From the IMG/VR virus record IMGVR_UViG_2799113095_000002: a DNA stretch of 64,000 nt. One strand, written 5' to 3'. Position 1 is the stretch's first letter, and every line of letters starts with the position of its first letter. The notes beneath the pieces were generated by a model. It made no database searches. It was not told the origin of the DNA and was given only the letters and a program-made list of their open reading frames with translations. The stretch is from a virus. Lineage: Duplodnaviria; Heunggongvirae; Uroviricota; Caudoviricetes. Position numbers and translations under genes: made by a program. Shown piece by piece: positions 2,284 through 62,731 of this stretch.

Positions 2284-2303
2284 TTGGAGGGTGTGCTGAT
2301 CGG

Positions 2304-4124: not shown

Positions 4125-5114
4125 CTAGCGTGACCTCTTATAGCGTTGTGGCAGCAGGACAGTGATCTTGGCGTTGGGGTCGGAATGCTTGACGCGGATG
4201 TGCGCGACGGTCTTTGGGGCGATGGCCGCCATGAACCGCTTGTCGAACCGCTTCCACACCGGTTCGCCGCTGGCCGCGAGGTCGTGCAGGAAGAAGTCGA
4301 GGATCTTGGACTGGCGGGCGATCTTGTAGAAGATGTTGTCTACCGGGTCATTTGATGCTGTGAGCGTGCGCTGGGTGGGGTCGGTATCCACGAGCACGTA
4401 GCCGTCTTGCGGTGTGATGAGTGGGAGCTCCACCATGCGTCCGGTGTCGCCGTCCTCCACCCATGCCTTGCCGGGCGGAATGATGAACTGTGTGAAGGAC
4501 TTCAACTCGCCCCGGTTGGCGAGGGCTACGGTGCCCTCACCCTTGCCGTCATATTGGGCGGCGTTGGCCGGGGTGTTCTGCCATGTAGACCACAGCGAGG
4601 GCTTGCTGTAGTACGGCTTCTGGGCGAGCCATGTCAGGTTCCAGGTAGCGAAGTTGTTGCCGAATGCTACGGGGTCACGCTTGACCGAGCCGGTTACGGT
4701 TTTAGCGGGTCGGACCCTGATCCAGCGCCAGCCGGAGAACCGGGTGTAGATACCGAGCCACCCGTCGCGTTCTTCGTCTTGGCCTGCCCACCAGCGTGAT
4801 TCGGCCATCCGGTACTGGTACTCGTTGAACGGGATGCCCTTCCCGCCGATCTTCACCCCGAGGTTGATCTCTCGCTTGAGGATGTTGACGCGCTCGACCG
4901 TGGTTCCGAGCTCGTAGGCGCCCTCGCTGAGTAGCAGCTCGAAAGGCCAGTGGTGCTCGCCCTCGATCTCCTCGGCGAGGTGTACGCCCTGCCGGCCAGC
5001 GAGGACACCGCCGTGCAGGTCGTAGCGGTACCCGTCCGGGGTGATGTAGATGACGCGGGTCTCCAACCCCTGCAAGCGGGGTGGCAGCTTCTCCCATACG
5101 TCGTAGGCCGCCAT
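4125..5114 (-). CDS. minor tail protein (distal-tail-protein position)
   Basis: ORF 4125..5510 trimmed to MAAYDVWEKLPPRL; the upstream 132 residues are Arg-rich out-of-frame overlap with the TMP. It is the first gene after the tape measure. Confidence 0.5.
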   Translation of the reverse strand: MAAYDVWEKLPPRLQGLETRVIYITPDGYRYDLHGGVLAGRQGVHLAEEIEGEHHWPFELLLSEGAYELGTTVERVNILKREINLGVKIGGKGIPFNEYQYRMAESRWWAGQDEERDGWLGIYTRFSGWRWIRVRPAKTVTGSVKRDPVAFGNNFATWNLTWLAQKPYYSKPSLWSTWQNTPANAAQYDGKGEGTVALANRGELKSFTQFIIPPGKAWVEDGDTGRMVELPLITPQDGYVLVDTDPTQRTLTASNDPVDNIFYKIARQSKILDFFLHDLAASGEPVWKRFDKRFMAAIAPKTVAHIRVKHSDPNAKITVLLPQRYKRSR

Positions 5115-5134
5115 CTCTGCCTGCCGGATGAACC

Positions 5135-8100
5135 TCACGGTCGCGGCAGTCCTGACGCGTAGGTGCGGGAGCGTGCGTTCTGCTCGGTGTGTATCTCGGA
5201 TTTCAGTGCAGCGGGGTCCATTCCCACGTTCCCGGTGATGTTGATGGACTGATCGACGCTCGGCGGTGCCTGTGTCTGGCTGTTGGGCAAGAAGTCGCTT
5301 ACCTGCGGGAGCACTGACGCGATGGTGTCGCCTGCTGACGAGATGCCTCCGCCGTCGCCGAAGTTCATGCCGCTGAGGCCGCCGTCTTCGCTGCCGAGTG
5401 GGCCTCCGGCGAGGCCTGGGAAATTGCCCCGCTGCGGGCCGCCGAAGGCGTTCTTCGCCAGGCTGCCGAGGTAGTTCGCGCCTCCGGTGAAGAGCTTCCA
5501 GATGCCCCAATCCATTGGGTTGCTGAATATCTCGCCGTCGAAACCGAGGGCGTCCATGGCGCCGGAGAGCATGTCCTTCGCGAAGCTCTGTCCATCGGGT
5601 CCACTCCCCTTACTTCCCTTGTTGGCAGTGAACTTGCCTCGCTGTGCTTCGCCGAGGTCGTCACGGGCATCCCCTGCTTCGCGACGTGCCTTTGCGGCGT
5701 CGTTCTTGGCCTTATCGACCGCGTTCTGGGCCTGCATGACTTCCAGATCAGTTGCAGCCGCTGTGAGTTCCCGCTGCTTGGCTTCGGCTTCCTTGACGCG
5801 CAGATCAGCGTCTTTCACCCTCTGATCGGCGTCGGTGACACGCTCCTGCGCTTCCCGGACCTGCTTCGCATCTGGCCGGTAGTAGCCCGCGGTGCCGTCG
5901 TCGTCATAACCGGGAGTGGCGGGCATCCGCTGGTAGCCGTAGCCGCTGACTCCACCGCCACCACCTCCAAGACGGCTGTACGCGGCAGACGCAGCGCCAC
6001 TCTTGGACTGGATCTCCGTCTTGTATGCCTGCCGGCCACCGGAGTAGGCCGCCTCGGCTGAGGCTGCACCGGGCGCCTGCTGGAGCCAAAAGATGTCCTT
6101 CCAGATGTCCTTGGATGAGCCTCCGCTACTGCGCTTTTCATCAAGGCGGTTGAAGAACTCCCCGATGTTCTTGTTGGGGTCGTCGCGGCCGACGTAGGAG
6201 GTGTCCTGCTGGAACACGCCGTGCCATGCTCCGCCCCCACCAGAGGCTTTCGGGTTCAGGCCGGACTCTTGCATCGCGGTGGACAGCACCGCGACTGCCT
6301 CGTCTTGGCTGTACCCGCGACGTGTTGCCTCCCCGAGGATCGCCGAGGCAACGTCATCTGGGCTGGATTCCGGAGTCAGCTGACCGAGGCCCACGGACTG
6401 CTGCTGTTGCCGCCCCCCACCCGGCATCTGCCCATAGCTGCCGATCTCGTGCAGGGCGGCCACATGGATGTGGTCCCCGTGCTGCTTCATCGTGGATTCG
6501 CCGTAGATGCGGCGTGCAGCTTGGCCTTCGGCGTGTTCGCCGTTGACGTTGTACCAAACCTTCTGCGGGTCATCGAAGATGATCTGTGCGAGCTGGTCAC
6601 GCATAGACCAGAGCGCATCCAGGTTCCGGCGGGACGGATCAACGTCGATGGCCATGCCCTTGGGGTGGTAGCCGCCGTCTACGCCGTGATCGGTCTTGGC
6701 GCTGGTGAGTACCGCGCTCGGGTTTGATTCGCGCAGAGCCCGCAGGATGGACAGGTTTACCGTGCCGCCACCCATCCGGTTGAGCTCATCCTGGGAGACG
6801 TTGTTGAAGCCGCCCTGGTCGAACACGCCGAGCATCTGGCCGGTCTTGGCCCAGATGTCGATGGAGCGCTTCCCGCCCCTTATGGGTATGAATGCCTCAC
6901 CGCCTGTGGATGGTTCGGCCCACTGCACCAGCCCGGCGCCAGCGACTGGTGGCTGGAACATCGCGGTGCGGGGTAGCTTTCCGCCCGCGAACGACGCAAC
7001 CGAATCCCACACGTCGTAGATGCCGCCCCTGGCTCGGGGGGCGGCAGGCGGCGGCAACATCAGGGTGCTCCAGTCGCCCGGCGGTGGTGAGGAGGCGGGG
7101 GCGGGTGCTGTGATGTTCTTCTTGAAGTTGTCCCAATCCTCCTGTGCCTGCTTGGTATCCACGGTGACGGGGACTTCGAGCTTCTTGCCGCCTTGCTTCT
7201 GCCGCCACGCGTCGAGGGTCTTCTGGCCCTCTTCGGTGTTGGCGTTCACCTCGAACTTGCCGTCAGGCAGCTCCTTGACCTGGAGGCCGATCTTGGCGAG
7301 TTTCTCGGTGACCTCAGGGGCGTTCGAGTCGATGTAGACGGTCGTCTTGTCGTCACCGAGGGATACCTTTGCCTTGCCGAGCTTTTCGGTGAACTTGAGT
7401 GCTTCGGCGGTCTGGTTACCGGCCTCATCGAGCTTTTTGTTCAGCTCGTCAGCACCGCTGTTGGCGGCGTCCTTCCACTTCTTTGCCTTCTCGAACAGGC
7501 TGTCCGGTCCCGACTGCCAGGCAAAGAAGTCTTGCGCGCGTTTGAAATTCTGCTGTGCCTTGTCGTCGTTTCCGAGGACCTGGTCCCAGACGCCGCGCAG
7601 CTGCATCCATGTGCCGGCCACGTCGCCTGCGGCGGCTATGATGTCGCCGACCGCTGTCATCATGTCGGCAGCGAAGATGATGACGTGCCGCCCGGCGTCT
7701 ACCGCGCCCTCGGCGATGAGCGAGAAGAACTTCACGATGTCGGATTGGTGCTCGCTCACCCAATCGCCTAGACCCCCAAGGGCTTCGTTCGTGAAGTCGA
7801 AAACCTCGCTGGAGAGGGGCTGCAAAGCGCCAGCGGCCTTGTTCTTGAGGATCTGCCACTGCTGCGCGAAGTCATCGGTGGCGTCCACGTCTTCCTGGAT
7901 CGTGGTGCCGGTATGCGACAGCGCCTCATCGAGCTTCTTGACATCGAAGACTCCACGCCGGATTGCATCCACGAACTGCAACCCACCTCGGCCGCCAAAT
8001 AGCTTGTTACCGAGGTTGATTGCTCCTGCCTCATCGCCTACGTCGATGAGCCGCTGAATCTCGTTGGTCAGAGTGCGCAACGCCTCGGGTCCGCTCTGCC

Positions 8101-14358: not shown

Positions 14359-15267
14359 TTACTTGCTGCTCTGGGCAAGTGCTTCATCGAGGGTGAGGCT
14401 CTTTCCGTCCTCGCTCGCGAAGCCCTGGCGGGTGAGGGCTTCACGCAGCGACATGCCCTTCGGAGCGGGGTCGGCGTGTTGCCGAGTCTCGGCGAGGCGT
14501 CGGTTCGCTTCCGCCGCAACATCTGAAGCGGCAGCAGAACGTCTGAGGTCGTCGGCTGCCATTCCGACCGGGCCACCGATACGGACTGGTCCACCGAGCT
14601 TTTCGAGCGCGGCGCGGGCGCGGCGCAGGATGTCTTGATCGGAGCGCGCTTCCGCGAGCTGGCGGGGGTCGCATTCCGCGAGCATCGCCAAGGCTTCATC
14701 CACGGACTTCAACTCCGCCGAGGTGCTCGGGTTGGCGCCGAAGTTCACGACCGACACGTCTCCCTTGTGCAGAGATACCTCGGTGATGCACCGGTAGGCG
14801 TACTCGTCGTCGGGGAACTCGGGGGTGGACTTCCACACCTGGTTCTTGACGCGGAACGCAAACGACATCTCATCCATGTCCTTGCGGCGCATCTTGGGTG
14901 CGAGTCGCTGCACGTCAGGGTCCAGCGGGTCGAGCAGCGAATCTGTCAGCAGGCCAATACGGTCCACGCCGAGCTGGAGAGTCCCCGACTTGGTGCGCGC
15001 CAGCGGCATTCCCTCGTGGTTAATGAGCAGGTGTACGTCCGGGTCCTCCCGGAGGGTGGCGTTGAACGCGCCCCTGTCTATCTGTTCGATCCAGCCTCCG
15101 TTGGCGGGGCCTCCGTACATCTCGTACGGCTCGAACGTGGACGCGTAGCCGGTCAACCGGAGACCGCCCCCGCCCGAATCGGAGCGGAGATCGAACATCG
15201 GGATGGAGCGGTGCTCCCACACATCCTTACGGTTCTCCCGGTCGGCACGAGTTACCTTGGGCTTCAT
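14359..15267 (-). CDS. HK97-family prohead protease
   Basis: Motifs GYASTF, DRGAF, LINHEG (catalytic His region) typical of the phage prohead protease S78/U35 family. Lies between portal and capsid. Confidence 0.8.
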   Translation of the reverse strand: MKPKVTRADRENRKDVWEHRSIPMFDLRSDSGGGGLRLTGYASTFEPYEMYGGPANGGWIEQIDRGAFNATLREDPDVHLLINHEGMPLARTKSGTLQLGVDRIGLLTDSLLDPLDPDVQRLAPKMRRKDMDEMSFAFRVKNQVWKSTPEFPDDEYAYRCITEVSLHKGDVSVVNFGANPSTSAELKSVDEALAMLAECDPRQLAEARSDQDILRRARAALEKLGGPVRIGGPVGMAADDLRRSAAASDVAAEANRRLAETRQHADPAPKGMSLREALTRQGFASEDGKSLTLDEALAQSSK

Positions 15268-16550
15268 TGGTCCTCCTGTCCTGGGTCGCCTTCGACCTCG
15301 TCGGGTTCGGCGGCAGGGTCTTCTTCGGGGGTCTGTTCGGGTTGGCCGGCAGGGGCGCTGTCCGCTGGCGGGACATACCCGAGGGGCGCGTAGTTCATGG
15401 GCTGGAGCCGGATGTTGCCGTTCTCCACCGGTCCCATGTCTTCCTTGGCGCGCATCTCGTCCACGCTGTAGATGCCAATCTCGCGGCCGATCTTGTACGC
15501 CTCGAACCGGGACTTCATGTCGCCGCGCAGCAGGTCGTCCAGGGTGAACTTGACGTACTGCCCCTTCGGGAGGAGCAGCGAAAGGGACTGCTCGATGCAG
15601 GTCAGCCAGGCACGCAGCGTGAACTTCACGAAGCCGAGGGTCTGTTGCTCAATGCCGGTGCCCCAGCTGGTGGATTTCTCGGTGTCGCCAATCATGTGAG
15701 GCGGGATGCGGAATAGCATCGCGATCTCGCCGCGCTGGTAGCGGCGGGTTTCAAGGAACTGGGATTCGTTGGGGCTGATAGCGATTGGCTTCCACTTCAA
15801 CCCGCCGGTCAGGATGGCAGGGCGGCGACGCCCCGAGTGGGAGGCAATCCAGCGCTGCATCACGCCCTTGGTCTGGTCCGTATCCAACGTCTGGTCGGTT
15901 TCCAGCACTGAGGACGGGTTCGCGGAGTCCTTGAAGTAGTTGAGGCCGTATCGCTCAGCGGCCAAGGCGATTCCGACTGCGGCAGCGGCCCGCTGTACCG
16001 GAGACAACCCGAGCGCGGCGCCCGCTACCGGGTACCGCTTGATGTGAACCACATCGGCGGCGGGAACTTTCGTCCCATCTACCAGGTAGGTCGGTTCCAT
16101 CCAGCCGTTCTTGGCGGCGACGTTCACCGTCATAAAGTCGGGGTGGACGGGCATGATCGCTTTGGGGGTGTCGTCCGGGTTGCGTGCCGTGATGTAACCA
16201 AATCCGTTACCGGTGACCGCGAGTGCTTCCATCGTCATCCAGATCCAGTCGAACAGGGTGGTTTCTGGATAGGGGTTGGTGATGAGCTTTGGCTGCGGAT
16301 CGACGGGTACTGGGATGCCGCCTTGCAGCTGGTATGCGGTGAGGCTGAGTGAGGCGATGGTGTCGGCGAGTAGCGTGACGCAGGCGGTGAACGCCGCGAC
16401 CTGCGTTTCGCGGGCTCCGCGCGGGGTGACGCTGTAGCTGTTGCTCCCCCACGGGTACATCGCGTCGTCTTCGGCGGGTGTCGGAACGAAGGATGAGCCG
16501 CTGAGGACTCGCGCCTCAGGTGCACTGAACGCGCGCGACAGGAAGCTCAC
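15264..16550 (-). CDS. portal protein
   Basis: ORF 15264..16895 trimmed to a GTG at 16550 (GTGA overlap with the upstream stop); the N-terminal 115 residues are Arg-rich and out of frame. About 428 aa, downstream of terminase, with an acidic C-terminus. Confidence 0.8.
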   Translation of the reverse strand: MSFLSRAFSAPEARVLSGSSFVPTPAEDDAMYPWGSNSYSVTPRGARETQVAAFTACVTLLADTIASLSLTAYQLQGGIPVPVDPQPKLITNPYPETTLFDWIWMTMEALAVTGNGFGYITARNPDDTPKAIMPVHPDFMTVNVAAKNGWMEPTYLVDGTKVPAADVVHIKRYPVAGAALGLSPVQRAAAAVGIALAAERYGLNYFKDSANPSSVLETDQTLDTDQTKGVMQRWIASHSGRRRPAILTGGLKWKPIAISPNESQFLETRRYQRGEIAMLFRIPPHMIGDTEKSTSWGTGIEQQTLGFVKFTLRAWLTCIEQSLSLLLPKGQYVKFTLDDLLRGDMKSRFEAYKIGREIGIYSVDEMRAKEDMGPVENGNIRLQPMNYAPLGYVPPADSAPAGQPEQTPEEDPAAEPDEVEGDPGQEDQ

Positions 16551-16717
16551 TGGCCATCGGCCTTCGGTGCGCGGTTGGGCGGGTCGATAGCAAGCCCGAT
16601 GAGAATCAGTGCGAGACCGCCCATTACGAGACCGATCCACGGCGCCAACACCCAGCCCCCGGCGACTAGCACCGCGACCCCGGCCAGCTCGAACCCGGCC
16701 GAAATGAGGGGGCGCAT
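16547..16717 (-). CDS. small membrane protein (two predicted TM helices)
   Basis: ORF 16547..16768 trimmed to M18, which overlaps the terminase stop. Hydrophobic stretch LAGVAVLVAGGWVLAPWIGLVMGGLALILIGLAI. Confidence 0.3.
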   Translation of the reverse strand: MRPLISAGFELAGVAVLVAGGWVLAPWIGLVMGGLALILIGLAIDPPNRAPKADGQ

Positions 16718-18315
16718 CAGTAGAGGTCTTCTTTCTGCCACTCCATGATTTCCTCCTCGGAAGGCCATTCGTGCACGTCAGGCACCTTTTCGGGTCCGGC
16801 GAGCCGGACTGATTCAGCCCATGCAGCCGCCGCGCAGGCGACGAGGGGGCTTGCGTCGATGGGACTGCCTTGCCGGTCGAAAACCCATGCGTCACCGAGC
16901 TTTTTGGCGACTGTCGCGACGGCAGCTGTATCTAGGGCGGGTTGCGAGCGGTGGCGGACAATTCGCTGTACTACCTGGTCGTAGAAGTCGCCGCAGCCCT
17001 TGGTGAGGTCGCCGCCGCCCCATTCCAGGACCGGGATACCGGCCTCGACCATGTCCTCGATGAACCCTGAGGCCGGAGCGCCGCGCGCCTGCACGGCGAC
17101 GGTCTGGAACTTTCCGGGGCGTGCCTTGAACCACGGAATGATCCAGTCGGTACCGCGCTCCGCTGCAACAACTTCCACGTGGAGTAGGTCGTCGGCTCGG
17201 CGGGCGGCGATTGCGACGTAGCCGCGTGATCGTTGCCAATTCACATCAACGGCAGCCCACACAGGCGCCCCCTCAGCTCGCCGCGACAGCTCATCCAAGG
17301 TGGCTTGCCAGTCTTCGGCGGGGATGATGCCGGGGGCTAGCGAATCAACCCACTGGCATAGGTGTTCAGTCTTAAACCCGGCGATGTCAGCGCGTTTCGC
17401 TTCGAGCTTCCCCGCGACGGACGCTTCGTCGTGCCCGTCAAGCCAGCCCATCGCCGGGTTCGCCATCGGCCAGACGGAACGGTCGTACGGGTCAGATTCA
17501 TCCGGCGCGGACCACTCGAACAACCCGAGCTGGGTCTCCTCGGTCTTACCGGCGATTATCGCCTGCAAGCAGCCGTCCCGGACCGACCGCAGCACGATGG
17601 ATTTCTTGTCCCCGGCGTTACTGGCGGTAACGGCTTGGCTGTACTTACGGGCGGTGGTGGTGGGGACAACCGCGTCCCAGGTCTCCCAATTGGTGTGCTC
17701 ACGAAGCTCATCGAGCATTGCGAGGTCAATTGAGAAGGAGCGTCCCGCTTTTCGGTTCTGGGCGACAGCCCGCCAGGACCGTTTCCCGGTTAGGAACATC
17801 GCGTGCTTGCCGTTGGCGGTACGGTGCCGGACAAACTCCAGCCGGAGCTTCGAGGATTCCTTCACGTCATCCACGACGGCGGAGAGCGTGCCCTCCGCGT
17901 ACTCCAGCCCTTGTGCCGCGATGACCACCGTCTTGGCGGCCGGGCACCCGGCAGTCGATATGCCCTTGCTGTCCAGGTACAGCCGCCAGAGGCCAAGCCC
18001 CTTAAGCCACTGGGTCTTCCCGTTCTGCCGCGCGATGAGGATGACGACTGTGCGGAGCCGGAACCCTGTACCGTCCGCGCCTTTCTCCAAAGCGTGGATA
18101 TACAGCCACTTTTGGTACGGCAGGAGCGTCCAGCCGAGGAAATTCTCCAGAAAACCGATGCACTCGAATCCCCAGGAGGTATCCGGGTTCAGACCACAGC
18201 CGCACTCGCAGGCATCCGGGCGGCTGGGGTCGCAGTGCGCGGTGAGGGGCGGCGTGTACAGGCGGGGTTTGGTGTACCCCTTAAGCGTTGGTGCGCTTAC
18301 GACGCCAGTCGTCAA
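16717..18315 (-). CDS. terminase large subunit
   Basis: 532-aa ORF with an ATPase-like N-terminal region (LIARQNGKT) and a nuclease-like C-terminus. Canonical position upstream of portal. Confidence 0.85.
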   Translation of the reverse strand: MTTGVVSAPTLKGYTKPRLYTPPLTAHCDPSRPDACECGCGLNPDTSWGFECIGFLENFLGWTLLPYQKWLYIHALEKGADGTGFRLRTVVILIARQNGKTQWLKGLGLWRLYLDSKGISTAGCPAAKTVVIAAQGLEYAEGTLSAVVDDVKESSKLRLEFVRHRTANGKHAMFLTGKRSWRAVAQNRKAGRSFSIDLAMLDELREHTNWETWDAVVPTTTARKYSQAVTASNAGDKKSIVLRSVRDGCLQAIIAGKTEETQLGLFEWSAPDESDPYDRSVWPMANPAMGWLDGHDEASVAGKLEAKRADIAGFKTEHLCQWVDSLAPGIIPAEDWQATLDELSRRAEGAPVWAAVDVNWQRSRGYVAIAARRADDLLHVEVVAAERGTDWIIPWFKARPGKFQTVAVQARGAPASGFIEDMVEAGIPVLEWGGGDLTKGCGDFYDQVVQRIVRHRSQPALDTAAVATVAKKLGDAWVFDRQGSPIDASPLVACAAAAWAESVRLAGPEKVPDVHEWPSEEEIMEWQKEDLY

Positions 18316-18715
18316 GGTCGCTCACCGGGGCTTCGTCGCCGTCGTCGCCCTCGTCGTCCGGGTCGGGCAGGTTCGGCGGCTCGTTCATCCCTGGCGTCGC
18401 GGCGTCCAGCCCGTAGAGCCGGGTCTGCTGTGCGAGGAGCCTCCGGCAGAACTCGGCTGCTTTCACGTCGCCGTTCAGCGCGTTGCCGAAATGGGCCCGA
18501 AACAGCGCCTCCGAGCGCTCCACGTGCATCGCCAACGCCTGATCCGCTAAGTAATCACGGCGTTTCGCCGCCTTGGCCATCTCCCGCTGAACGATCTTCT
18601 CGACGGCGGTGTGAGTGATGTTGTGCCGCTCACCGATCTGCCGGTACGGGACACCAGCGATGAACAGCTGGAGCACTTGCGCGTCGCGCTTGGCCCGGGT
18701 GATCCGGTCCGTCAC
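18281..18715 (-). CDS. terminase small subunit-like HTH DNA-binding protein
   Basis: ORF 18281..18856 trimmed to a GTG at 18715 (GTGA overlap). HTH PYRQIGERHNITHTAVEKIV. Acidic C-terminus. Directly upstream of TerL. Confidence 0.45.
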   Translation of the reverse strand: MTDRITRAKRDAQVLQLFIAGVPYRQIGERHNITHTAVEKIVQREMAKAAKRRDYLADQALAMHVERSEALFRAHFGNALNGDVKAAEFCRRLLAQQTRLYGLDAATPGMNEPPNLPDPDDEGDDGDEAPVSDLDDWRRKRTNA

Positions 18716-19569
18716 CGGCCCCCGGCCTTCGCGGAGCGGACGCCGGGTGGCGGCGTGGTCGGGGGGTGCCCGGCGTGCCGCTTCTTCGGGGCGAGGGTGA
18801 TCTCGATGTAGCCGGTGTCCTTCTTGCGGGTGTTCCTGCGCACCAGGCCCGGCCACTGCTTCTCCAGCTCCTCGACGCTGAAAGCGACCTTGGCGGGGGT
18901 TCTTTGGAACTCACCGGGCGCCTGGCAGCCGCCAGGGTCCGTGTAGTAGTTCGCTTGGGCGGCAATTCCGTCGTGCCGGACTGTGCCACCGTCGTACCAC
19001 CATGCGCGCAGGCTCGTTTCGTGCTCGTCCTTGTACGGGACGGTGAACTCGTGGACGGGATGGCCGGGCCGGTTGAAGAACCCGATCACGGTGAAGATCA
19101 GAAATCGGAGGCCTTCGCTGACGCGGCCCGGCGACATGTAGAAGGCATTGACGACCGGCGACAGACCCCACACGTACAGGTCCCGCCCAGCGGTCTCGGT
19201 GAACATCCGCCGGAACAGTGAATCCACATCAGCCACGGGGCGAAGGGTTTTCGAGTCCACTGCCTCCACCAGGCCCGTCACGTCGTCGTCCAGGCACACA
19301 ATCGGGGTACCAGGCGCGAACTGGGTGGGTATGTAGGTCCGCTGTGCCGTGATACCGCGCATCGGGGTGGCGTTGAGGCGGACACCCGTCCTGCCGGCCA
19401 CCTCCTGGTAGGCCTCCAGCTGCGGATCGTTGTCGTGGAGGAACACCGTGATCCGGGCCGGGTCCACTCCGGTCGCGTTCAGCCAGGCGAGCGTCTTCCG
19501 CTCCAGCCCTTCGGCGCGCTGGTAGGAGGGGATCACGATCTGGTACTCGCGGGCCGGGGCGCGCCTCAC
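18712..19569 (-). CDS. GT-A fold glycosyltransferase (DxD type)
   Basis: N-terminal YQIVIPSYQR resembles the GT2 VIPTYNR motif; a DxD-like IVCLDDDV follows. GTG start overlaps the oxygenase stop. Confidence 0.55.
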   Translation of the reverse strand: MRRAPAREYQIVIPSYQRAEGLERKTLAWLNATGVDPARITVFLHDNDPQLEAYQEVAGRTGVRLNATPMRGITAQRTYIPTQFAPGTPIVCLDDDVTGLVEAVDSKTLRPVADVDSLFRRMFTETAGRDLYVWGLSPVVNAFYMSPGRVSEGLRFLIFTVIGFFNRPGHPVHEFTVPYKDEHETSLRAWWYDGGTVRHDGIAAQANYYTDPGGCQAPGEFQRTPAKVAFSVEELEKQWPGLVRRNTRKKDTGYIEITLAPKKRHAGHPPTTPPPGVRSAKAGGR

Positions 19570-20405
19570 TAGGGCTGCCTCCGCTCAGCGATGAGCCGCG
19601 CCTGATTCTGCTCCCGAGCGGTGCGCGCCTTTTGGGCGTATTCAGTCTCCAATGCACCCTCCAAGCACGATTTCATGCCCTTGAGGGCGTAATAGACGAC
19701 GCTCAGCCGGTATCCGTCCGGCTTACGGAGCTGCATCGGGGTGACCCCATGCACCAGCTGATGACCCGGGAAGAAGACCGCGGTGCTGTCTCGGCACGGC
19801 AGCACCACCCCGTACTCGGGGATGTGCAGGTGCCCACCGTTCATGCCGCGCCGGAACACTGGCATCGCGCTCCAGGTTGGGAAGTTGAACCCGTCGCGGT
19901 GGTAGGGCAGCGTCGAGCTCCGGTTGATGACACCCGAAGTCCAGAGCTCGGAATCGCCCAGCTTCCAGGTAGATCCGACCTGGAGCATGGTTTCCCGGTC
20001 GCGGGCCTCGATTTTCGCGTCAATTTGGCGGAGCATCCTCGCCAGCGCCCCGGCCCACGCATCCAGCGCTGCCTCGGCTGCCGGGAACTCCTTGGCGACA
20101 CCGGACGCCCGGCACGCGTCGCGGCTGTAGCTTGGCCGCCGGGGCTGGTACCCGAAGTTGGCCGACAGGTTCTTCGCGCCCGACGCACGCCGCAGATCCG
20201 TGTACTTCAATGACAGGCAGGCCCGCCGCAGATCCGGCGCCTCCACCGGCAGCACCGCCATCACGGTCTCACCGGTATCGGCGTCTGTAGCGATGAATGG
20301 CTCGCTGTGGGTCGGCTCGTGCTCCCCGACCCGCGTACCGACGAGGGTTGTCGCCTCCTCCGGGCTCACCACCCGCCGTAAACTCAGCCGCTCCACCGGT
20401 GTCAC
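19569..20405 (-). CDS. 2-oxoglutarate/Fe(II)-dependent dioxygenase
   Basis: HxD (PYHRDGF), distal His (LVHGVTP) and RxS (YRLSVV) 14 residues later form the classical 2OG-oxygenase triad plus 2OG-binding Arg. GTG start at 20405 overlaps the ParB-like stop (GTGA). Confidence 0.6.
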   Translation of the reverse strand: MTPVERLSLRRVVSPEEATTLVGTRVGEHEPTHSEPFIATDADTGETVMAVLPVEAPDLRRACLSLKYTDLRRASGAKNLSANFGYQPRRPSYSRDACRASGVAKEFPAAEAALDAWAGALARMLRQIDAKIEARDRETMLQVGSTWKLGDSELWTSGVINRSSTLPYHRDGFNFPTWSAMPVFRRGMNGGHLHIPEYGVVLPCRDSTAVFFPGHQLVHGVTPMQLRKPDGYRLSVVYYALKGMKSCLEGALETEYAQKARTAREQNQARLIAERRQP

Positions 20406-21097
20406 TCCGCGACCGCTGGCGCTGCGTCCAGCGCGGTCTCTTCCTGCTTGAGCAGGTGCACCAACACGGATGCGTTGCTCTCCAGTGCGTGAGCGTCCGC
20501 CACCCGCTGCAACGTCTCGACCACCCACAGGTACTCGTCGCCGACGAACGTCATCACGACCATCCGCTGGTCGGACTGGTCATAGTTGGTCTTCAAGTCC
20601 TCCAGGGACGTTGCGGTGCCCTGGTTTCCGGCCAACTCGTCCTCCGGCACCGGTTCCAGCTCCTCCAGGGCCGCCGCCAGGTCATCGAGATCGTCTTGCA
20701 CGTAACCGGTGCCATCCAGGGTGTCCAGGGACTCCAGGATTTCCAGCAACGCCTCGTTGTCGTACCCACCCAAGGCTGGGATCTTGTTGTCAGCAACGAC
20801 AATCGCCTTGGCCTGCTGCTCATCCACGTCCACCAGCCAGCAGTCGATATCTGCCCAGCCGAGTTCCCGCGCCGCGAGCAAGGTGTGGTTACCGGCCAAC
20901 ACCTCGTTGGGGCGCCCGGTGTGCGTCCCACGGTTCACCACGATGGGCCGGTACTGGCCATTGGCGGTAAGCGAGGCCGCGATATCCGGGACCGAACCTC
21001 TACGCGGGTTGCCCTTGAAGGTTTTTAGCTGGGACACGGGTAGCCGCGCAGCCGAATTAACTGCGGTACCTGCGGTGTTAACTGTGGGGTCAGTCAT
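20402..21097 (-). CDS. ParB-like nuclease domain (ParB/Srx fold) protein
   Basis: N-terminal KGNPRRGSVPDIAASLTANGQYRPIVVNRGTHTGRPNEVLAGNHTLLAARELGW matches the ParB N-terminal domain pattern. Acidic C-terminal half. Confidence 0.6.
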   Translation of the reverse strand: MTDPTVNTAGTAVNSAARLPVSQLKTFKGNPRRGSVPDIAASLTANGQYRPIVVNRGTHTGRPNEVLAGNHTLLAARELGWADIDCWLVDVDEQQAKAIVVADNKIPALGGYDNEALLEILESLDTLDGTGYVQDDLDDLAAALEELEPVPEDELAGNQGTATSLEDLKTNYDQSDQRMVVMTFVGDEYLWVVETLQRVADAHALESNASVLVHLLKQEETALDAAPAVAE

Positions 21098-21441
21098 GCG
21101 GGCGCGCTCCTAGCTGGTAGCTGCTGGCTAACTTCTTGGCAACATTTTTCGAGGGGGGGCGGAACCCTTGCCGGTCCGAGGGACCTTGGGTTCGGCGGGC
21201 AACTTTTCACCCCGCCCCCGGGTATCTGCGGTGGCCGTGTGGTCCGTTGGGGCCTGGTGACGAGGGGTTCGTCTCTGGGTCGGGGTCGTTCGGGTGTGTG
21301 CTCGTACAGCGATGGTGGTGGGGTGGGCCCGCAGCGGTGTTGGCGCGGTTGGCTAACTCGCCTCGTTCCCCGAGGTTGGGAGGGGTGTTAGCCAACGGTG
21401 TCCGGGTGTTAGCTGGGTGTGGGGCGTTGTTAGCTGGCGGG
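21098..21441. repeat. 344-bp intergenic region with clustered short repeats (TTAGCTGG x3; inverted GTTGGCTAAC / GTTAGCCAAC); candidate parS-like or packaging (cos/pac) site
   Basis: Motif copies at about 21104, 21125, 21349, 21387, 21408 and 21428. It is the only large non-coding gap in the packaging region. Confidence 0.5.
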
Positions 21442-22170
21442 TTACCAGGTTTCGGACGGTTGGCCGATGGCGATGTTGGGTTCGGCGTCGCCTCGGCGGA
21501 TGTTGCAGTTCAGGTGGCTGGGTCGGAAGTTCCTGGGGTCCAGCGCGAGCTCGGGGGCCTCGGATACCGGGATGGCGTGGTCCACGGAGAAACTGTCCGG
21601 GTGGGGTGCTTTGAGGCTGTAGTCGATGGGGCGCTGGTCCAGCCAGCACACGTCGCCGCGCTCCTCGCACTCCTTACGGAAGGTGGCCTTGAGTTCTTGG
21701 TAGTGGCGGCCGCGTGGGCGTCCTTGTGCGTCGAGGCCGGGCACATGCTGGGCGGGGGTGCTGCCGGTGGTGGGGTGTTCCTCGTACCAGCGTTTGATGG
21801 CGCCCTGTAGCTGCCATGGCCGTTCGGCGCGTGCGCGTTCCATGACGGTGTCTTGGCCGGGGTCGATGGTGATGACCTCAGCGCCGTACGAGCGGTACTT
21901 CGTGAGCATCGCGGTGCTCGGGGTGGAGTGGATCAGGAACACGTCGTGCTCACCGACGAGGGTGAGGGCGGTGTCGATGGCTGCCTGTCGGGCCGCCTTG
22001 GTGACTGCCTTCACGTGGTCGGGGTGGTCGTGGCGGTGGGGGCTGTCGTCTTGTGGGGTGAGGGTGCAGGCGAGGGCGTCGTAGTCGATGGTGATGTCAC
22101 CGGGCCGCGAGTTGTCCCGCACCCATGTGGACTTGCCTGCTGCCGGCGGACCAACCACCACGAACAGCAC
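21442..22170 (-). CDS. P-loop nucleotide/polynucleotide kinase-like domain fused to an HNH nuclease domain
   Basis: ORF 21442..22314 trimmed to a GTG at 22170 (TAGTG overlap). Walker A VVVGPPAAGKSTW at the N-terminus. C-terminal VDHAIPVSE...PSHLNCN resembles the HNH motif. Confidence 0.55.
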   Translation of the reverse strand: MLFVVVGPPAAGKSTWVRDNSRPGDITIDYDALACTLTPQDDSPHRHDHPDHVKAVTKAARQAAIDTALTLVGEHDVFLIHSTPSTAMLTKYRSYGAEVITIDPGQDTVMERARAERPWQLQGAIKRWYEEHPTTGSTPAQHVPGLDAQGRPRGRHYQELKATFRKECEERGDVCWLDQRPIDYSLKAPHPDSFSVDHAIPVSEAPELALDPRNFRPSHLNCNIRRGDAEPNIAIGQPSETW

Positions 22171-22394
22171 TAGACCGCCACCAGGTGGCCGCACTCCAGG
22201 CAGCGGGGTGTACCGCAGTAACCGGTGATGCGCATGCGATCGTCGGCTGCCAGCACCACGGCGCCGTGGGCGGGTGCGCCCGGTCCGGCCAGGGTGCCGT
22301 CCAGGCGGAACCATTCGCTACCGCATTTGACGCACTGGTGGTTGGTGGTCGGTGGGGTGCGGTGCTCGCCGAGTTGGATGACGTTGTCTGCCAT
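22170..22394 (-). CDS. small zinc-ribbon protein
   Basis: MADNVIQLGEHRT...CVKCGSEW...CGTPRCLECGH carries two CxxC pairs. ORF 22170..22466 trimmed to M25. Confidence 0.4.
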   Translation of the reverse strand: MADNVIQLGEHRTPPTTNHQCVKCGSEWFRLDGTLAGPGAPAHGAVVLAADDRMRITGYCGTPRCLECGHLVAV

Positions 22395-29709: not shown

Positions 29710-30182
29710 CACGCCAGCTCCTCGCTTGTGAAGATCAGAGGTGCGAGCTCGCTCCACGCTTGACCAAGGTCACGACGCAGGAGCTCGATAGACCAATTGG
29801 CCGACCAGTCCCGTATCGGTTTCAAAGCCTCACGGGCAGTGGCGTTCATTGCGTCGGTCATCGTCCGGTAGTACGCGGGACCGCCGTCTTCTTCCACCCA
29901 TGCCCGTTGCGTGGCTTTGATAGCAGGGTCAGACATGGGGTTCTCCAGCGTTCCAGCCCTTGAGGCCTCCAGCGCGGCATTAAGCCGTTTGACAGCAGAC
30001 CTTTTCGCGGCCTCGGTTGGTAGTGACTCGTACCGCTTTAGCCATCTAGCGCCTGCCTCCTCCGCCCCTATGGCATCGGCCAGCTCAGCATCGGTGCGTT
30101 GCTCGGGGTCTGGGAAACATTCAAGTTCACGAGCCCGAGCTACGAGCTTGTCTCGGAATGCACTCGATTCCGTCATCGCCAT
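29709..30182 (-). CDS. hypothetical helical protein
   Basis: 157-aa ORF with an Ala/Glu/Arg-rich helical composition. Confidence 0.45.
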   Translation of the reverse strand: MAMTESSAFRDKLVARARELECFPDPEQRTDAELADAIGAEEAGARWLKRYESLPTEAAKRSAVKRLNAALEASRAGTLENPMSDPAIKATQRAWVEEDGGPAYYRTMTDAMNATAREALKPIRDWSANWSIELLRRDLGQAWSELAPLIFTSEELA

Positions 30183-31030
30183 CTACTTCGACTGACGGCG
30201 ATGTTGTGTGCGTTTCGGATCGCGCCGGAGAGTCGGGCTTCGGACCTGGTACCGCGAGTACGCCAGTGCCGCTGGTACATATCAACCAACCACGTGTTGA
30301 TCCGAACCCAGTCCGGGGTATCCGGCAGAGGCTCGGTCGAGATGAAGTGCTCCAGACTCCAGGTCAGATCCGCGAGCCAGCTCTTCACCTCGGGGAGCGA
30401 GGTCTCGCCGCGCCGAACGCGGAGCAGCGCATCACGATGGGCCTTGACCATCGGCAGGTGCAGCTTCCTCTCCGTGACGAGCTGGATACCCTGCATGCCG
30501 AGGCGCAGGGCGTGATACGCGTACTTGGTGTCGAAACCGTACTGTTCGATGAGTTCGGGCCGGTTGGTGTGCCGGTGATGGGTACCTTCGAGTCCTTCAC
30601 GCTGAGAGTTCAAGTAGCTCAAGAACTTCTGTCCAGCCTGCGTGGTGACGAACATCTCCGAGGCTGCCTGAAGTTCGGCGCCGAGTTGGCTTTTCACCGT
30701 CAGCTCATTGTCGGGTATCCAAAGCATCAGCAGCACTGAGGGATTGCCATTGGCGGCCAGCCGTGTCCACTTCCGCAGGCTGTAGACACACAGATCGAGG
30801 TCGCCGGGGCCGGAGCGGGCGCCGTCCGGTTGGGTGCGGTACATGTACTGCTCGAACTTCTCCAAACCGATTACGGCCTCGGGAGGTTCGATGCAGATGC
30901 CCATTTCGTCGCGGTCGTCGGCGCCGGTCGTGACACCATGCAGGCCGGAGCCGACCTGCCCACGAAGAATCGTGTTCTCGTCCGCGATAGCGCGGTGCCG
31001 CTCCGTGCCGTGGCGTGCTTCTGTACTCAC
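30173..31030 (-). CDS. Pol-beta-superfamily nucleotidyltransferase (GS-x9-DDxDE motif) with a roughly 160-aa C-terminal helical domain
   Basis: LRGQVGSGLHGVTTGADDRDEMGICIEP matches the hG[GS]x9-13 Dh[DE] nucleotidyltransferase signature. GTG start overlaps the upstream small ORF stop. Confidence 0.55.
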   Translation of the reverse strand: MSTEARHGTERHRAIADENTILRGQVGSGLHGVTTGADDRDEMGICIEPPEAVIGLEKFEQYMYRTQPDGARSGPGDLDLCVYSLRKWTRLAANGNPSVLLMLWIPDNELTVKSQLGAELQAASEMFVTTQAGQKFLSYLNSQREGLEGTHHRHTNRPELIEQYGFDTKYAYHALRLGMQGIQLVTERKLHLPMVKAHRDALLRVRRGETSLPEVKSWLADLTWSLEHFISTEPLPDTPDWVRINTWLVDMYQRHWRTRGTRSEARLSGAIRNAHNIAVSRSRWR

Positions 31031-31194
31031 AGTCCACGCTCCAAGTGCTTCTTGAATTGCTTCTTGTCCATGACAATTCCCGTTGTCCAGTCCGGTGTAG
31101 CAATGGTTTTCGCTAGCGCGCAGTCCGTTTCAGTCGTGAACGGGCCAACGTGCTTCCCGTTGAGCCGGTTCACGATATGGAAAGGGCCGCTACT
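31030..31194 (-). CDS. small hypothetical protein (about 54 aa), locally lower GC
   Basis: MSSGPFHIVNRLNGKHVGPFTTETDCALAKT..., found by hand. GTGA overlap with the nucleotidyltransferase start. Confidence 0.3.
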
Positions 31195-31415
31195 CATCGG
31201 GAGGTGGCCGTTCTACCGTCGATGATTTTCTGGATGAGTTGGGGGCTGCACTTCACGGCGGTGGCGAGAGTGGCGTGGGTCCACTTCTCGCGCTCGTTCG
31301 TCCAGAGTTCCCGTACGAGCCGGTCGCGCTGGCTTCGGTGCTGGCTGGCGGAGTCGCGCTCTTCCCCGGCCAGCCGGTGGTGCTCGCGGGCTTGCTGTGC
31401 CCTCGGGTCCATCAA
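31194..31415 (-). CDS. small HTH DNA-binding protein
   Basis: C-terminal WTHATLATAVKCSPQLIQKIIDG looks like a helix-turn-helix. Confidence 0.4.
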   Translation of the reverse strand: MMDPRAQQAREHHRLAGEERDSASQHRSQRDRLVRELWTNEREKWTHATLATAVKCSPQLIQKIIDGRTATSR

Positions 31416-31846
31416 CGTCCCCTGATGTCCACGCGGCGGCGGGATATCTTCTCGATCGCGGTGATGGCTTCCTCTCCGGGGTCTTCGATCTCGAAGATGC
31501 CGTGCTCTGCTGCGTCACGGCCTGACTCGAACAGCGGGACAGGGCTCACATATTCGAATGCGGCCTGTACGTCTTCGGGAGACAGCGCGCCCGTGGCCGC
31601 GCCGATGCGTATCGCAAGTAGTTCCTCGCCGCCGTGGCAGCCGACCCAGCCCGCACAAAGCCGGGCCGCTGCGTCGGCGGCGTCCGTCTGGTGGCACAGG
31701 AACAGGCCGGGCGGCTGCTCCGAGGTGGGGCCGTCGTAGGCGATGAGTTTCTGATACTCGGTGGCATGCCACACGCCGCTGGGTACGTCCTCCCGGTAGG
31801 GGCACGACGCGCAGGGGCGCGGCGCGGGGCCGCCGACCCTGCCCAT
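31412..31846 (-). CDS. Cys/His-containing hypothetical protein co-transcribed downstream of rsr
   Basis: CASCPYR...LFLCHQ...CAGWVGCHGG. ATGA overlap with the rsr stop. Confidence 0.45.
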   Translation of the reverse strand: MGRVGGPAPRPCASCPYREDVPSGVWHATEYQKLIAYDGPTSEQPPGLFLCHQTDAADAAARLCAGWVGCHGGEELLAIRIGAATGALSPEDVQAAFEYVSPVPLFESGRDAAEHGIFEIEDPGEEAITAIEKISRRRVDIRGR

Positions 31847-31848
31847 CG

Positions 31849-33549
31849 TTACAGGTCACCTCGGGCGAAGTCCGAGATGAGCTGCGGTACAGCGCTATCG
31901 AACCCGGACACGTCGAGCTGGCGCGGGTCCGAAGGATCTGCGATGGTCTGCCGACCGCCGGTCATCGCGACCACCATCAGGCTGGTGTCCAGGCTGAGCT
32001 TGTTCCGGTACTCGGTGAGAGCCTGGTGCGGGTGGATACCCCCGTACCAGGTCTCGTTGTCGGTGAGGATCACGATGGCGTCGTAGGGGCGAAGCTGCGC
32101 CTTCGCCCAGATCATGGGGAGCGCGCAGTCGGTAGCGCCCATAGGGAGGCCTGCGGTGTATCGGCACACGTCATCGAGGCGGCGGCGCGGCGTGATGTCC
32201 AACTCCGTGATCCCTGATGAGCGGAAGCTCCCACCGGCCCCGGCGGTGAACCCGATGATGTCGTGGTTGGGCTCCACGTTGGCGGTCACCAGTGCGAGCG
32301 CGGCGGCGGCCTCGCGGCACGTCAGCGGCATACCGGAGATCGCGGCGCTCATGGAGCCGGAGATGTCCAGTGCCAGCAGGGTCCGCTTACCCGAGGGCTC
32401 GACGGCGCCGTAGGCGTTGTAGAACGCGGCGTCGAGCGCGTCAACGATGCGGCGGTTCGGAGTCCAGGTGGACTCACCGCGCGCAGAACGCCCAGAGGCA
32501 TAGGTGCGCTGTGCGACAAGGACATTGATCGGGTGGACGCGGCCCTTTCGTAGCCGGTCTGTGTCCTGGAGCTGCGCGGAGACCCGGCTGCCGAGCTGAC
32601 CGTTCAGCACGCCGAGGCGGGTTAGGCGGGGCAGCTGCCGCATGAGGGCGGTCTGCGGGAGGCCGTGCTCGATCAGCGCCTCCCAGATCGCAGGCTCGGT
32701 GAGGGCCTTGTCGGGGAACGCCTCCCACGGTAGGCCGTTGCCCCGGCGGATGATCGCCAGCCACTCGTTGACGGTGGTGGCACGCTGCGCGGCTTCGTAG
32801 TCCGCGATGATGGCAAGCGGGTGCCCGTCAGCCAGTTCCACATTGGGCAGCTTCGGTAGAGCGGGGTTGCGCTCTCCGGCCTTGAGCTGCTCCGGAGTGA
32901 GGAGCGGCTGCTTCCAGTTGTAGTCGTTGAGCCCCTTGCCGACAGCCCAGTTGAACGCCATGCGGCGTGCGGGGTCGCTGGTGGCGGGGCCGCTGAGCCG
33001 GAGCATGTCGCGGTGGGTCCAGCCGTCACGCTGCCGGTACTTGACCAGCTGGTAGGCGAGCCGGTCCACGGGCTTGTCCAGGTACCAGCTGGAGACGGCG
33101 CGCTTCATCGCCGGTCCCCAGCCCCGGAACTGCTCCATGTACTTGGTGAACAGGTACAGGTGGGTGGCGGTGCGCGCGACTCGGGGCAGTGCGGCGGCGG
33201 CGGCACGGCGGCCTTCCACGTTCTCGGAGGCCGAAGCGATAGCGAGCGCGAACAGGGCCGGGTTCTGCTTGGGGGCGCGTCCGGCCTCGGAGACCTCAAC
33301 GATCTTCTGCACGAGGGTGACGGGATCGGTTGCGGCGAGCCGGATCACGACATCGGCGGCGTCGCGGGTGAGGTCCTCGGCGGAGGTGTAGTAGGTGCCG
33401 CCGGTCGTGCCGAGGGTCAGGAATCGGTGGAGCCGGGTCCAGTCGTCGGCCTGGAAGGTGTAGCCCCCGGCGGCGTTCTTGACCTGGCGCGGGTCCGCCT
33501 TCTGGGCCTGAGGGGTGCGCCGCGTGCTGATCGAGGATAGAACGTCCAC
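31849..33549 (-). CDS. rsr: Ro60/Rsr-like ribonucleoprotein (TROVE domain plus C-terminal vWA domain with MIDAS DxSxS)
   Basis: 566 aa. GTG start with an AGGAG RBS 6 nt upstream. vWA MIDAS LLALDISGSMS...T...D. Size and domain order match bacterial Rsr. A Y-RNA-like array lies immediately upstream. Confidence 0.75.
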   Translation of the reverse strand: MDVLSSISTRRTPQAQKADPRQVKNAAGGYTFQADDWTRLHRFLTLGTTGGTYYTSAEDLTRDAADVVIRLAATDPVTLVQKIVEVSEAGRAPKQNPALFALAIASASENVEGRRAAAAALPRVARTATHLYLFTKYMEQFRGWGPAMKRAVSSWYLDKPVDRLAYQLVKYRQRDGWTHRDMLRLSGPATSDPARRMAFNWAVGKGLNDYNWKQPLLTPEQLKAGERNPALPKLPNVELADGHPLAIIADYEAAQRATTVNEWLAIIRRGNGLPWEAFPDKALTEPAIWEALIEHGLPQTALMRQLPRLTRLGVLNGQLGSRVSAQLQDTDRLRKGRVHPINVLVAQRTYASGRSARGESTWTPNRRIVDALDAAFYNAYGAVEPSGKRTLLALDISGSMSAAISGMPLTCREAAAALALVTANVEPNHDIIGFTAGAGGSFRSSGITELDITPRRRLDDVCRYTAGLPMGATDCALPMIWAKAQLRPYDAIVILTDNETWYGGIHPHQALTEYRNKLSLDTSLMVVAMTGGRQTIADPSDPRQLDVSGFDSAVPQLISDFARGDL

Positions 33550-33573
33550 CGTGAGCTCCTTGCTGGGTTAGGT

Positions 33574-37102: not shown

Positions 37103-37136
37103 GAACTCATCCAGTGGCGTCACCACGCGCGTGCCC

Positions 37137-62645: not shown

Positions 62646-62683
62646 TCCGTAGTCAGATGCTCTATCCGTTGAGCTACGGGCGC
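62611..62683 (-). tRNA. tRNA-Arg (anticodon ACG)
   Basis: Minus strand reads GCGCCCGUAGCUCAACGGAUAGAGCAUCUGACUACGGAUCAGAAGGUUAGGGGUUCGAAUCCCUUCGGGCGCA, a cloverleaf with anticodon loop CUACGGA. No encoded CCA. Confidence 0.8.
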
Positions 62684-62731
62684 TTACTATTCAATTGTTG
62701 CAGGTCAACAGGTTTGGCCTGCAGACCGACG

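Follow-up and report, generated by a model that had tools for sequence, protein, structure and literature searches.

A ParB, TET/JBP oxygenase and glycosyltransferase cassette in a Mycobacteroides prophage and its predicted role in thymine hypermodification

The three-gene cassette and its conservation

The DNA analysed in this study is a 64-kb window (64,000 nucleotides, one strand) of the virus record IMGVR_UViG_2799113095_000002 (Caudoviricetes), and all coordinates given here are window positions; the window carries a prophage, the left end of which falls outside it. Our subject is a cassette of three minus-strand open reading frames (ORFs) located exactly within 18712-21097, which encode, in the order of transcription, a ParB-like protein, an oxygenase dependent on 2-oxoglutarate (2OG) and Fe(II), and a glycosyltransferase (GT) of the GT-A fold. 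The ParB-like protein (231 amino acids (aa); 20402-21097) has the ParB/Srx fold according to Pfam, PHROG, and an AlphaFold2 (AF2) model. The oxygenase (278 aa; 19569-20405) was assigned to the TET/JBP (5mYOX) family of dioxygenases by Pfam Tet_JBP, a PDB profile search, and Foldseek, and the GT (285 aa; 18712-19569) to the TET-associated glycosyltransferases (TAGTs) by Pfam TAGT (PF20691). Proteins exactly identical to the GT, the ParB-like protein, and the terminase are recorded at NCBI as 'MULTISPECIES' Mycobacteroides proteins on about 40 contigs, and their hosts are M. abscessus (three subspecies), M. chelonae, M. saopaulense, and M. salmoniphilum.

The cassette is followed on the same strand by a gene from a GTG at 18715 (18281-18715, 144 aa) for a small-terminase-like helix-turn-helix (HTH) protein, identified by HTH_23 and DUF5681, both weak Pfam matches, and by PHROG 645. 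The junctions were read directly from the sequence: the ParB stop and the oxygenase start overlap as GTGA, the oxygenase stop and the GT start share one base in TAGTG, and the GT stop overlaps the small terminase start, again as GTGA. The mechanical ORF of the oxygenase reaches 20528, but translation plausibly begins with the GTG at 20405; homologues start at the equivalent position. These start/stop overlaps at three junctions indicate translational coupling within the cassette and between it and the packaging genes, so that the ParB-like protein, the oxygenase, the GT, and the small terminase form four translationally coupled genes, and the three-gene arrangement described in an earlier note on this DNA was thereby borne out. 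The GC content at third codon positions (GC3) of the cassette ORFs was 0.75-0.86, and there were 636 homologues of the oxygenase, about 100 of the GT, and 993 of the ParB-like protein; based on these two observations, the cassette ORFs are real genes. The small-terminase-like gene occupies the same position, upstream of the large terminase, as gp8 of phage Typha and gp3 of phage Cooper. It belongs to the context, outside the chemistry considered below, and the cassette stands at the head of the packaging operon.

The conservation of the cassette was examined by scanning IMG/VR with the GT profile, which yielded 74 loci, and by running hidden Markov models built from our own alignments against the ORFs of these loci. 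A contiguous same-strand order of ParB, TET, and GT was found in 29 of the 74 loci, the alternative order of ParB, GT, and TET in five, and a distant TET directly upstream of the GT with no ParB in about 18. Near-identical copies of the present prophage account for 5/74. A ParB was present upstream of each close TET (E<1e-100) for which the flank was long enough. A scan of genome contigs with the same GT profile gave one locus only, in an Actinomycetospora metagenome-assembled genome. Among cultured phages, mycobacteriophage Indlovu (Acadian type) carries ParB, TET, GT, a PIG-L deacetylase, and Ploopntkinase3 before the terminase, and Arthrobacter phage Lilmac1015 carries ParB, an oxidoreductase, GT, and a deacetylase. 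Cooper has ParB and TET, then the terminase, without a GT. The ParB gene comes first (gene 1), at the physical end of the genome, in Cooper, Indlovu, and the Gordonia phage Wooper. The three-gene module is common both in viral metagenomes and in cultured actinophages.

Identity of the three proteins

The only Pfam family matched by the oxygenase was Tet_JBP (PF12851; E 1e-5, below the curated cut-off), and this family, with no other, was matched by 32 of 43 aligned homologues at E<=1e-3; a homologue 98% identical to the oxygenase (P0001) has a precomputed PF12851 match. The HxD...H...RxS signature that the earlier note had recognised corresponds to H169-R-D171, H219, and R233-x-S235, all invariant in the 43-sequence alignment, with H169, D171, and H219 assigned as the iron triad and R233 and S235 as the 2OG-binding residues. 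When the family profile was compared with PDB sequences, the best match was the Naegleria Tet-like dioxygenase, in an alignment spanning the distal His and the Arg of the NgTET1 motifs. The AF2 model (pLDDT 89.6) was searched against the PDB with Foldseek, and ranks 1-26 were all TET-family structures (NgTET1, Chlamydomonas CMD1, Coprinopsis CcTet, and human TET2; E 2e-11 to 4e-9, TMq 0.53-0.64), followed by PiuC/P4H-like proteins, FTO, and AlkB at E>=5e-8 and TMq<=0.5. In addition, the oxygenase is 47% identical to gp2 of Wooper, a 'Tet-like J-binding protein'. Of the clades that had been considered for it, the oxygenase thus belongs to the TET/JBP (5mYOX) family by both the Pfam match and the leading Foldseek ranks, and not to the P4H (prolyl hydroxylase) or AlkB clades.

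The oxygenase has an invariant C247 followed by a C-terminal helix (247-275) with conserved A251, E253, R261, R264, and E265. On the contigs with the order ParB, GT, and TET (L043, L044, L047, L048, L067, and L076), the oxygenases end at about profile position 245, without the C-terminal helix of the ParB-TET-GT group. We also observed that TET/JBP oxygenases of mycobacteriophages are widely labelled 'queuine tRNA-ribosyltransferase' (in Cooper, Indlovu, Julie1, KayaCho, and others, and also in PHROG 6059). This label is a propagated mis-annotation when it stands on phage TET/JBP oxygenases; genuine TGT/DpdA cassettes are present in other phages, such as Typha.

The RxS motif had been regarded in the earlier note as a sign of hydroxylases acting on proteins or small molecules, and an alternative was raised in which collagen-like virion proteins would be hydroxylated on proline or lysine by the oxygenase and O-glycosylated by the GT. 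RxS is indeed found in many protein hydroxylases, but it is invariant in this TET-matching family, and we take TET2 to carry it as well, with R1896 and S1898 binding 2OG; therefore, the motif is not diagnostic of P4H. No P4H-type Pfam family was matched by the oxygenase or its 43 homologues, the top structural matches were all DNA-base oxygenases, and the P4H/PiuC-like folds stood below the TETs with a TM of about 0.37. The collagen-like triplets noticed earlier in the minor tail protein are present (GPQGPAG, GTEGPPG, and GPQGPAG), but they amount only to three isolated runs of 2-3 G-X-Y repeats. Protein modification finds a precedent in mammalian GREB1, a TAGT relative that glycosylates a protein (PMC7968844), whereas the ParB-fold partner and the conservation of the operon with DNA-modification genes in relatives argue against it. 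Taken with the P4H and structural results, this makes modification of virion proteins extremely improbable.

The GT matches Pfam TAGT (PF20691) at 30.2 bits against a gathering cut-off of 27.5, which settles the family placement that the earlier note had left to profile searches, and 32 of 38 GT homologues match the same family (best E 3e-14). It also matches PHROG 842, 'beta-glucosyl-HMC-alpha-glucosyltransferase' (T-even), at E 2e-10, and the identical protein is named 'GREB1-related protein [Mycobacteroides]' in NCBI and UniRef. The DxD motif read earlier is present: R77, D95, and D96 are invariant in the homologue alignment, D94 is at least 90% conserved, and a third motif, D181-E182-H183, reads EDY or DDY in homologues. 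The motifs R...DDD...EDY/F are common to the GT-A DNA glycosyltransferases of phages and to JGT, the glucosyltransferase that makes base J in trypanosomes (Pyle et al., bioRxiv 10.1101/2023.12.21.572611); in a comparison by motif, the GT of the window fits this pattern. A PDB sequence-profile search with the GT returned nothing meaningful, its best match being a ribosomal protein at E 0.01. The GT lies in a distinct subfamily of about 100 sequences, and its motifs and family match suggest that it is most likely a TAGT of the GT-A fold that would glycosylate 5-hydroxymethyluracil (5hmU) in DNA. TAGT relatives 25-33% identical to it were also seen in IMG/VR on giant-virus GVMAG contigs (L024, L035, L038, L045, L065, L069, and L074), most of them without a detectable TET within the flank.

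A different acceptor for the GT has to be considered, since the pathway could end at 5hmU while the GT adds a second sugar to another modification or acts on a cell-envelope or host molecule. Cooper-type phages, which have ParB and TET without any GT, and T6-like TAGT members, which add the second glucose and not the first (PMC13390438), are compatible with such a division of labour. On the other hand, the GT start overlaps the oxygenase stop, a TET lies within a few kb in more than 50 of the 74 IMG/VR loci of GT relatives, and no other DNA glycosyltransferase that could give the first sugar is found in the window. Based on this evidence, we regard an acceptor other than 5hmU as very unlikely.

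The ParB-like protein showed a weak Pfam ParB_N match (E 1e-4, below the cut-off) and a strong match to PHROG 723, 'ParB-like partition protein' (E 8e-53). Its AF2 model (pLDDT 85.9) consists of an N-terminal ParB/Srx nucleotide-binding domain (about residues 15-147) followed by an additional helix, then an acidic linker that is disordered and modelled with low confidence (about 148-164), and lastly a C-terminal domain of three helices (about 165-220), and no HTH DNA-binding domain is present in this model of all 231 aa. The best PDB folds were the ParB N-domains of pNOB8 ParB, M. xanthus ParB, Noc, and C. crescentus ParB. In an alignment of 49 homologues, the N- and C-terminal domains were conserved and the acidic linker was variable. 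The box aligned to 'AGERRWRA' of Noc/ParB reads 'AGNHTLLA', so that A-G-N-H-T stands in place of the GERR of segregation ParBs. The protein scored 25.9 bits with TIGR00180 against a cut-off of 58, and no ParA-like protein was found in Pfam scans of the window ORFs. A segregation ParB of a ParABS system was ruled out by the missing HTH domain, the missing GERR box, the TIGR00180 score, and the lack of a ParA in these scans.

The architecture agrees with that of the ParBs associated with 5mYOXs, which consist of a nucleotide-binding domain (NBD) and a C-terminal domain (CTD) without a DNA-binding domain (O'Toole et al., PNAS 2026, PMC13229309). These ParBs activate their cognate TET/JBP-type thymine dioxygenases: the 5hmU yield of 5mYOX176 rose from about 1% on its own to about 35% in the presence of ParB176, the activation was needed on double-stranded DNA, and the 5mYOXs of the ParB-associated clade C1 require co-expression of their ParB to make 5hmU from T (PMC13229309). 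The ParB-dependent 5mYOXs also carry a C-terminal extension past the last conserved Cys, C280 in 5mYOX176 (PMC13229309), and the helix 247-275 past C247 may be its counterpart. By analogy with these proteins (PMC13229309), activation of the oxygenase is a more likely role for the ParB-like protein than the nuclease function that the earlier note had seen in it.

The ParB-like protein could instead be a nuclease or a packaging or partition factor, for example at cos together with the HNH and terminase proteins, with the oxygenase and the GT acting independently of it. Several observations would fit this: the protein is labelled 'ParB-like nuclease domain' in phage records, its gene has the HNH and terminase genes as neighbours, there is a repeat array immediately upstream, and in related phages this ParB N-domain accompanies modification modules of unrelated kinds. 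Nevertheless, the ParB gene is translationally coupled to the oxygenase gene, each close homologue of the oxygenase with sufficient flank has a ParB upstream, the CTD is specific to this family and absent from the ParBs of Typha and of the M. abscessus prophage prophiGD43A-5, and experiments have demonstrated that related 5mYOXs depend on ParB (PMC13229309). We consider it unlikely, therefore, that the ParB-like protein is anything other than an activator.

Substrate, proposed pathway and known relatives

Thymine and cytosine were compared as possible substrates of the oxygenase. Pfam scans of about 50 window ORFs revealed no C5-cytosine methyltransferase (C5-MT), and no PCQxFS motif was found in any frame of the 64 kb; likewise, a motif and Pfam search of the window found no ThyA-like hydroxymethylase or DNA methyltransferase. 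In Wooper, the gene order is ParB, the Tet-like protein (gp2), aGPT-Pplase2 (an amino-acid:DNA transferase, AADT), a 5-hmU DNA kinase, and the terminase, and the oxygenase of this phage must supply 5hmU, because it is followed by the AADT and the 5-hmU DNA kinase. On contigs mined by O'Toole et al., the most frequent neighbours of 5mYOXs were GTs in 31%, ParBs in 27%, and terminases in 19% of cases, with C5-MTs in only 6%, and the ParB-associated 5mYOXs are without a neighbouring C5-MT (PMC13229309). The lack of a C5-MT in the window, the Wooper orthologue with its 5hmU-specific enzymes, and these published neighbourhoods together make thymine the most probable substrate, and by analogy the oxygenase is most likely a thymine-to-5hmU DNA dioxygenase of the ParB-associated clade.

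In the cytosine route, a C5-MT encoded elsewhere, in the rest of the prophage or in the host, would produce 5-methylcytosine (5mC), which the oxygenase would convert to 5-hydroxymethylcytosine (5hmC) as the phage clade A/B TETs do, and the GT would then glycosylate 5hmC. Phage pathways of a TET and a GT-A enzyme acting on 5mC are experimentally established (PMC8256090; bioRxiv 10.1101/2023.12.21.572611), 5mYOX97 and 5mYOX176 are reported in PMC13229309 to oxidise 5mC in vitro as well, and a C5-MT gene could lie in the left end of the prophage beyond the window. However, the 64 kb contain neither a C5-MT domain nor the PCQxFS motif, a C5-MT immediately adjoins the cytosine-type phage TETs and not the ParB-associated ones (PMC13229309), and the close Wooper orthologue is coupled to enzymes specific for 5hmU. 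Cytosine as the substrate is thus quite improbable.

Our proposal, to which we assign a probability of roughly 0.7, is that the cassette is a post-replicative thymine hypermodification module of a prophage of the Mycobacteroides abscessus-chelonae group, expressed together with the packaging genes. The dioxygenase, with Fe(II), 2-oxoglutarate, and O2, would hydroxylate thymine's C5-methyl group in duplex phage DNA to give 5hmU. Its membership in the TET/JBP family was observed, and thymine as its substrate is what we infer from the comparison above. The upstream ParB-like protein would be the cognate activator needed by the dioxygenase on duplex DNA, a role proposed because of its architecture, its conserved adjacency, and the published ParB176/5mYOX176 pair. 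The TAGT would then move a sugar from a nucleotide-sugar onto the new hydroxyl to give a base-J-like glycosyl-5hmU, as family membership and operon logic suggest. Unlike Acadian-type cassettes, this one has no deacetylase, which suggests a simpler product. The coupling to the terminase genes suggests that modification would take place after replication, around the time of packaging, and that the modified DNA would then be packaged; the probable benefit would be protection against host restriction and other nucleic-acid-targeting defences. The idea of the earlier note that a DNA base is hydroxylated and then glycosylated next to a ParB fold is thus supported by the TET/JBP oxygenase, the TAGT, and the conserved order of ParB, TET, and GT.

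Several points weigh against this proposal. The Tet_JBP score of the oxygenase, 25.3 bits, is below the curated (gathering) cut-off of Pfam, 34.9, and the left end of the prophage, where a C5-MT could lie, is beyond the window. For many of the ParB-dependent homologues, tests in E. coli yielded little 5hmU (PMC13229309; preprint Table S2), and the ParB-dependent subclass is mainly tied to kinase, AADT, and GATase genes, GTs being tied mainly to the ParB-independent clade (O'Toole et al., PMC13229309). Some relatives of the TAGTs use other acceptors: the T6-type glucosyl-HMC glucosyltransferase (PMC13390438) is one such enzyme, and GREB1, which is an O-GlcNAc transferase acting on protein (PMC7968844), is another.

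The earlier note had called such a modification system not obviously described for this kind of prophage, and the literature speaks otherwise. Iyer, Aravind et al. predicted in 2013 that TAGTs glycosylate JBP-generated 5hmU in phages, and GlcNAc-5hmU was predicted for Mycobacteriophage Acadian, as cited in PMC4111573; ParB-dependent phage T-dioxygenases were biochemically characterised in 2025-26 (O'Toole et al., PMC13229309). The cassette type is therefore already described, its operon logic having been predicted in 2013 and its first step shown biochemically in 2025-26. As far as the literature examined shows, glycosylation downstream of a ParB-dependent T-dioxygenase is predicted, and no demonstration of it was found there.

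The closest characterised pair is 5mYOX176/ParB176 (PMC13229309), which the cassette resembles in that the oxygenase lies directly downstream of a short ParB with NBD and CTD and no DNA-binding domain, no C5-MT is a neighbour, and the genes are near the terminase. It differs in the downstream enzyme, which in the window is a TAGT and not a kinase, AADT, or GATase. The cluster B5-type mycobacteriophages (Acadian, Indlovu, and Baee) and Lilmac1015 share the order ParB, TET, and GT at the genome end before the terminase, with identities of 46% for the oxygenase, 39% for the ParB, and 32-34% for the GT. Unlike the cassette in the window, these phages add a PIG-L-type deacetylase, and Indlovu also Ploopntkinase3; the cassette in the window, moreover, is carried by a temperate Mycobacteroides prophage and its GT is of a distinct subfamily.

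In trypanosomatid base J, which depends on JBP1/JBP2 and JGT, T is likewise converted to 5hmU by a TET/JBP dioxygenase and then O-glycosylated by a TAGT/GT-A transferase, both steps being predicted on the side of the prophage. The spacing of 48 residues from HxD to H in the oxygenase is, we assume, the same as that in JBP1. In contrast to the base J enzymes, the proteins of the window are separate and small, without J-binding or SWI2/SNF2 domains, and they come with an accessory ParB, a viral context, and a presumed anti-restriction role instead of transcriptional control. The phage clusters of C5-MT, TET, and GT (Burke et al. 2021; Pyle et al. 2024) also use a TET-made hydroxymethyl group as the handle for a GT-A-type DNA glycosyltransferase; however, their substrate is cytosine and they depend on a GpC-specific C5-methyltransferase encoded next to them, whereas the window has no C5-MT gene and its oxygenase falls in the ParB-associated group.

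If the proposal is true, virions from widespread Mycobacteroides prophages carry glycosylated 5hmU, which could make their DNA resistant to restriction enzymes and probably to further defences that target DNA. As the host group is clinically relevant, this would matter for phage therapy, for M. abscessus phage engineering, and for the sequencing and cloning of phage DNA. It would also provide a genetically tractable, natural trio of ParB, 5mYOX, and GT for the investigation of the glycosylation step after ParB-dependent thymine oxidation.

The pre-terminase slot and other prophage genes

The structural genes of the prophage are 77% identical in nucleotide sequence to those of the M. abscessus prophages prophiT37-1 and prophiGD43A-5, and about 76% identical to those of cluster-Y-type phages (Typha and Bipper). 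An end of the prophage is marked by tRNA-Arg(ACG) and tRNA-Ser(GCT) at 62610-62820 on the minus strand, beside a host class I/II aminotransferase gene. Downstream of the small-terminase-like gene, the minus strand encodes the large terminase subunit (532 aa; 16717-18315; PHROG 9 'terminase large subunit', E 4.5e-68; NCBI 'terminase large subunit [Mycobacteroides]') and the portal (15264-16895).

The slot before the terminase holds different genes in related elements. In prophiGD43A-5 it contains a fusion of ParB_N with an N6/N4 methyltransferase (3718-5316 of locus L083), and in Typha it contains a ParB with a DpdA-like TGT, QueD, QueE, and FolE, a 7-deazaguanine set (202-4286 of locus L084). 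The ParB N-domains of prophiGD43A-5 and Typha are 59-64% identical to that of the ParB-like protein in the window, and the C-terminal domain is not shared. This pattern suggests an exchangeable effector on a common ParB platform in the pre-terminase slot. Typha gp3, labelled 'queuine tRNA-ribosyltransferase', was also tried as a mis-annotated TET and rejected (hhalign probability 0.1); its neighbours QueD, QueE, and FolE and its lack of TET similarity indicate a genuine 7-deazaguanine cassette.

Upstream of the ParB gene, the intergenic region of 345 bp (21098-21441) contains five GCTAAC/GTTAGC sites, in comparison with 11 in the whole 64 kb and about 0.08 expected in the 345 bp. The minus-strand copies at 21387, 21408, and 21429, in direct orientation, have an exact 21-bp spacing, and inverted copies lie at 21127 and 21352. 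A 17-nt inverted repeat (21348-21364 / 21380-21396) is located in the same region. Judging from its sequence, this cluster could be a candidate cos or terminase recognition region, or a parS-like site for ParB loading. A more speculative reading, which we hold to be doubtful, would make the cassette a base-J counterpart in prophages of the pathogen M. abscessus, with the modification spatially programmed: the ParB would load at the GCTAAC array beside the genome end and activate the dioxygenase along the DNA during packaging, and the ParB N-domain would be a delivery platform for three chemistries, namely the methyltransferase fusion, the 7-deazaguanine set, and the pair of TET and GT.

The gene on the far side of the intergenic region (21442-22314, minus strand) had been described in the earlier note as a packaging HNH. 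Its HNH domain was confirmed, and the description has to be corrected in that the single 290-aa protein is a fusion of a P-loop kinase (Pfam AAA_33) with HNH, encoded by a gene 82% identical in nucleotide sequence to a 'polynucleotide kinase' of M. abscessus prophages. The fusion was tried as a 5hmU DNA kinase, gave no BLASTP match to the 5-hmU DNA kinase of Wooper (gp4) or the P-loop kinase of Indlovu (gp5), and was rejected from the pathway.

Other cargo of the prophage was noted outside the cassette, all on the minus strand. A set for RNA quality control or repair occupies 30173-33567: an RlaP RNA-repair nucleotidyltransferase is encoded at 30173-31129, a DUF6283 protein at 31412-31855, and a Ro60/TROVE-vWA protein at 31849-33567. 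Across the whole window, no match to a Y-RNA family was above the Rfam threshold. Further genes encode a 677-aa protein with a C-terminal Tox-REase-5 nuclease-toxin domain (35219-37252) and a DUF5131 (phage Gp37/Gp68) protein (48526-49494).

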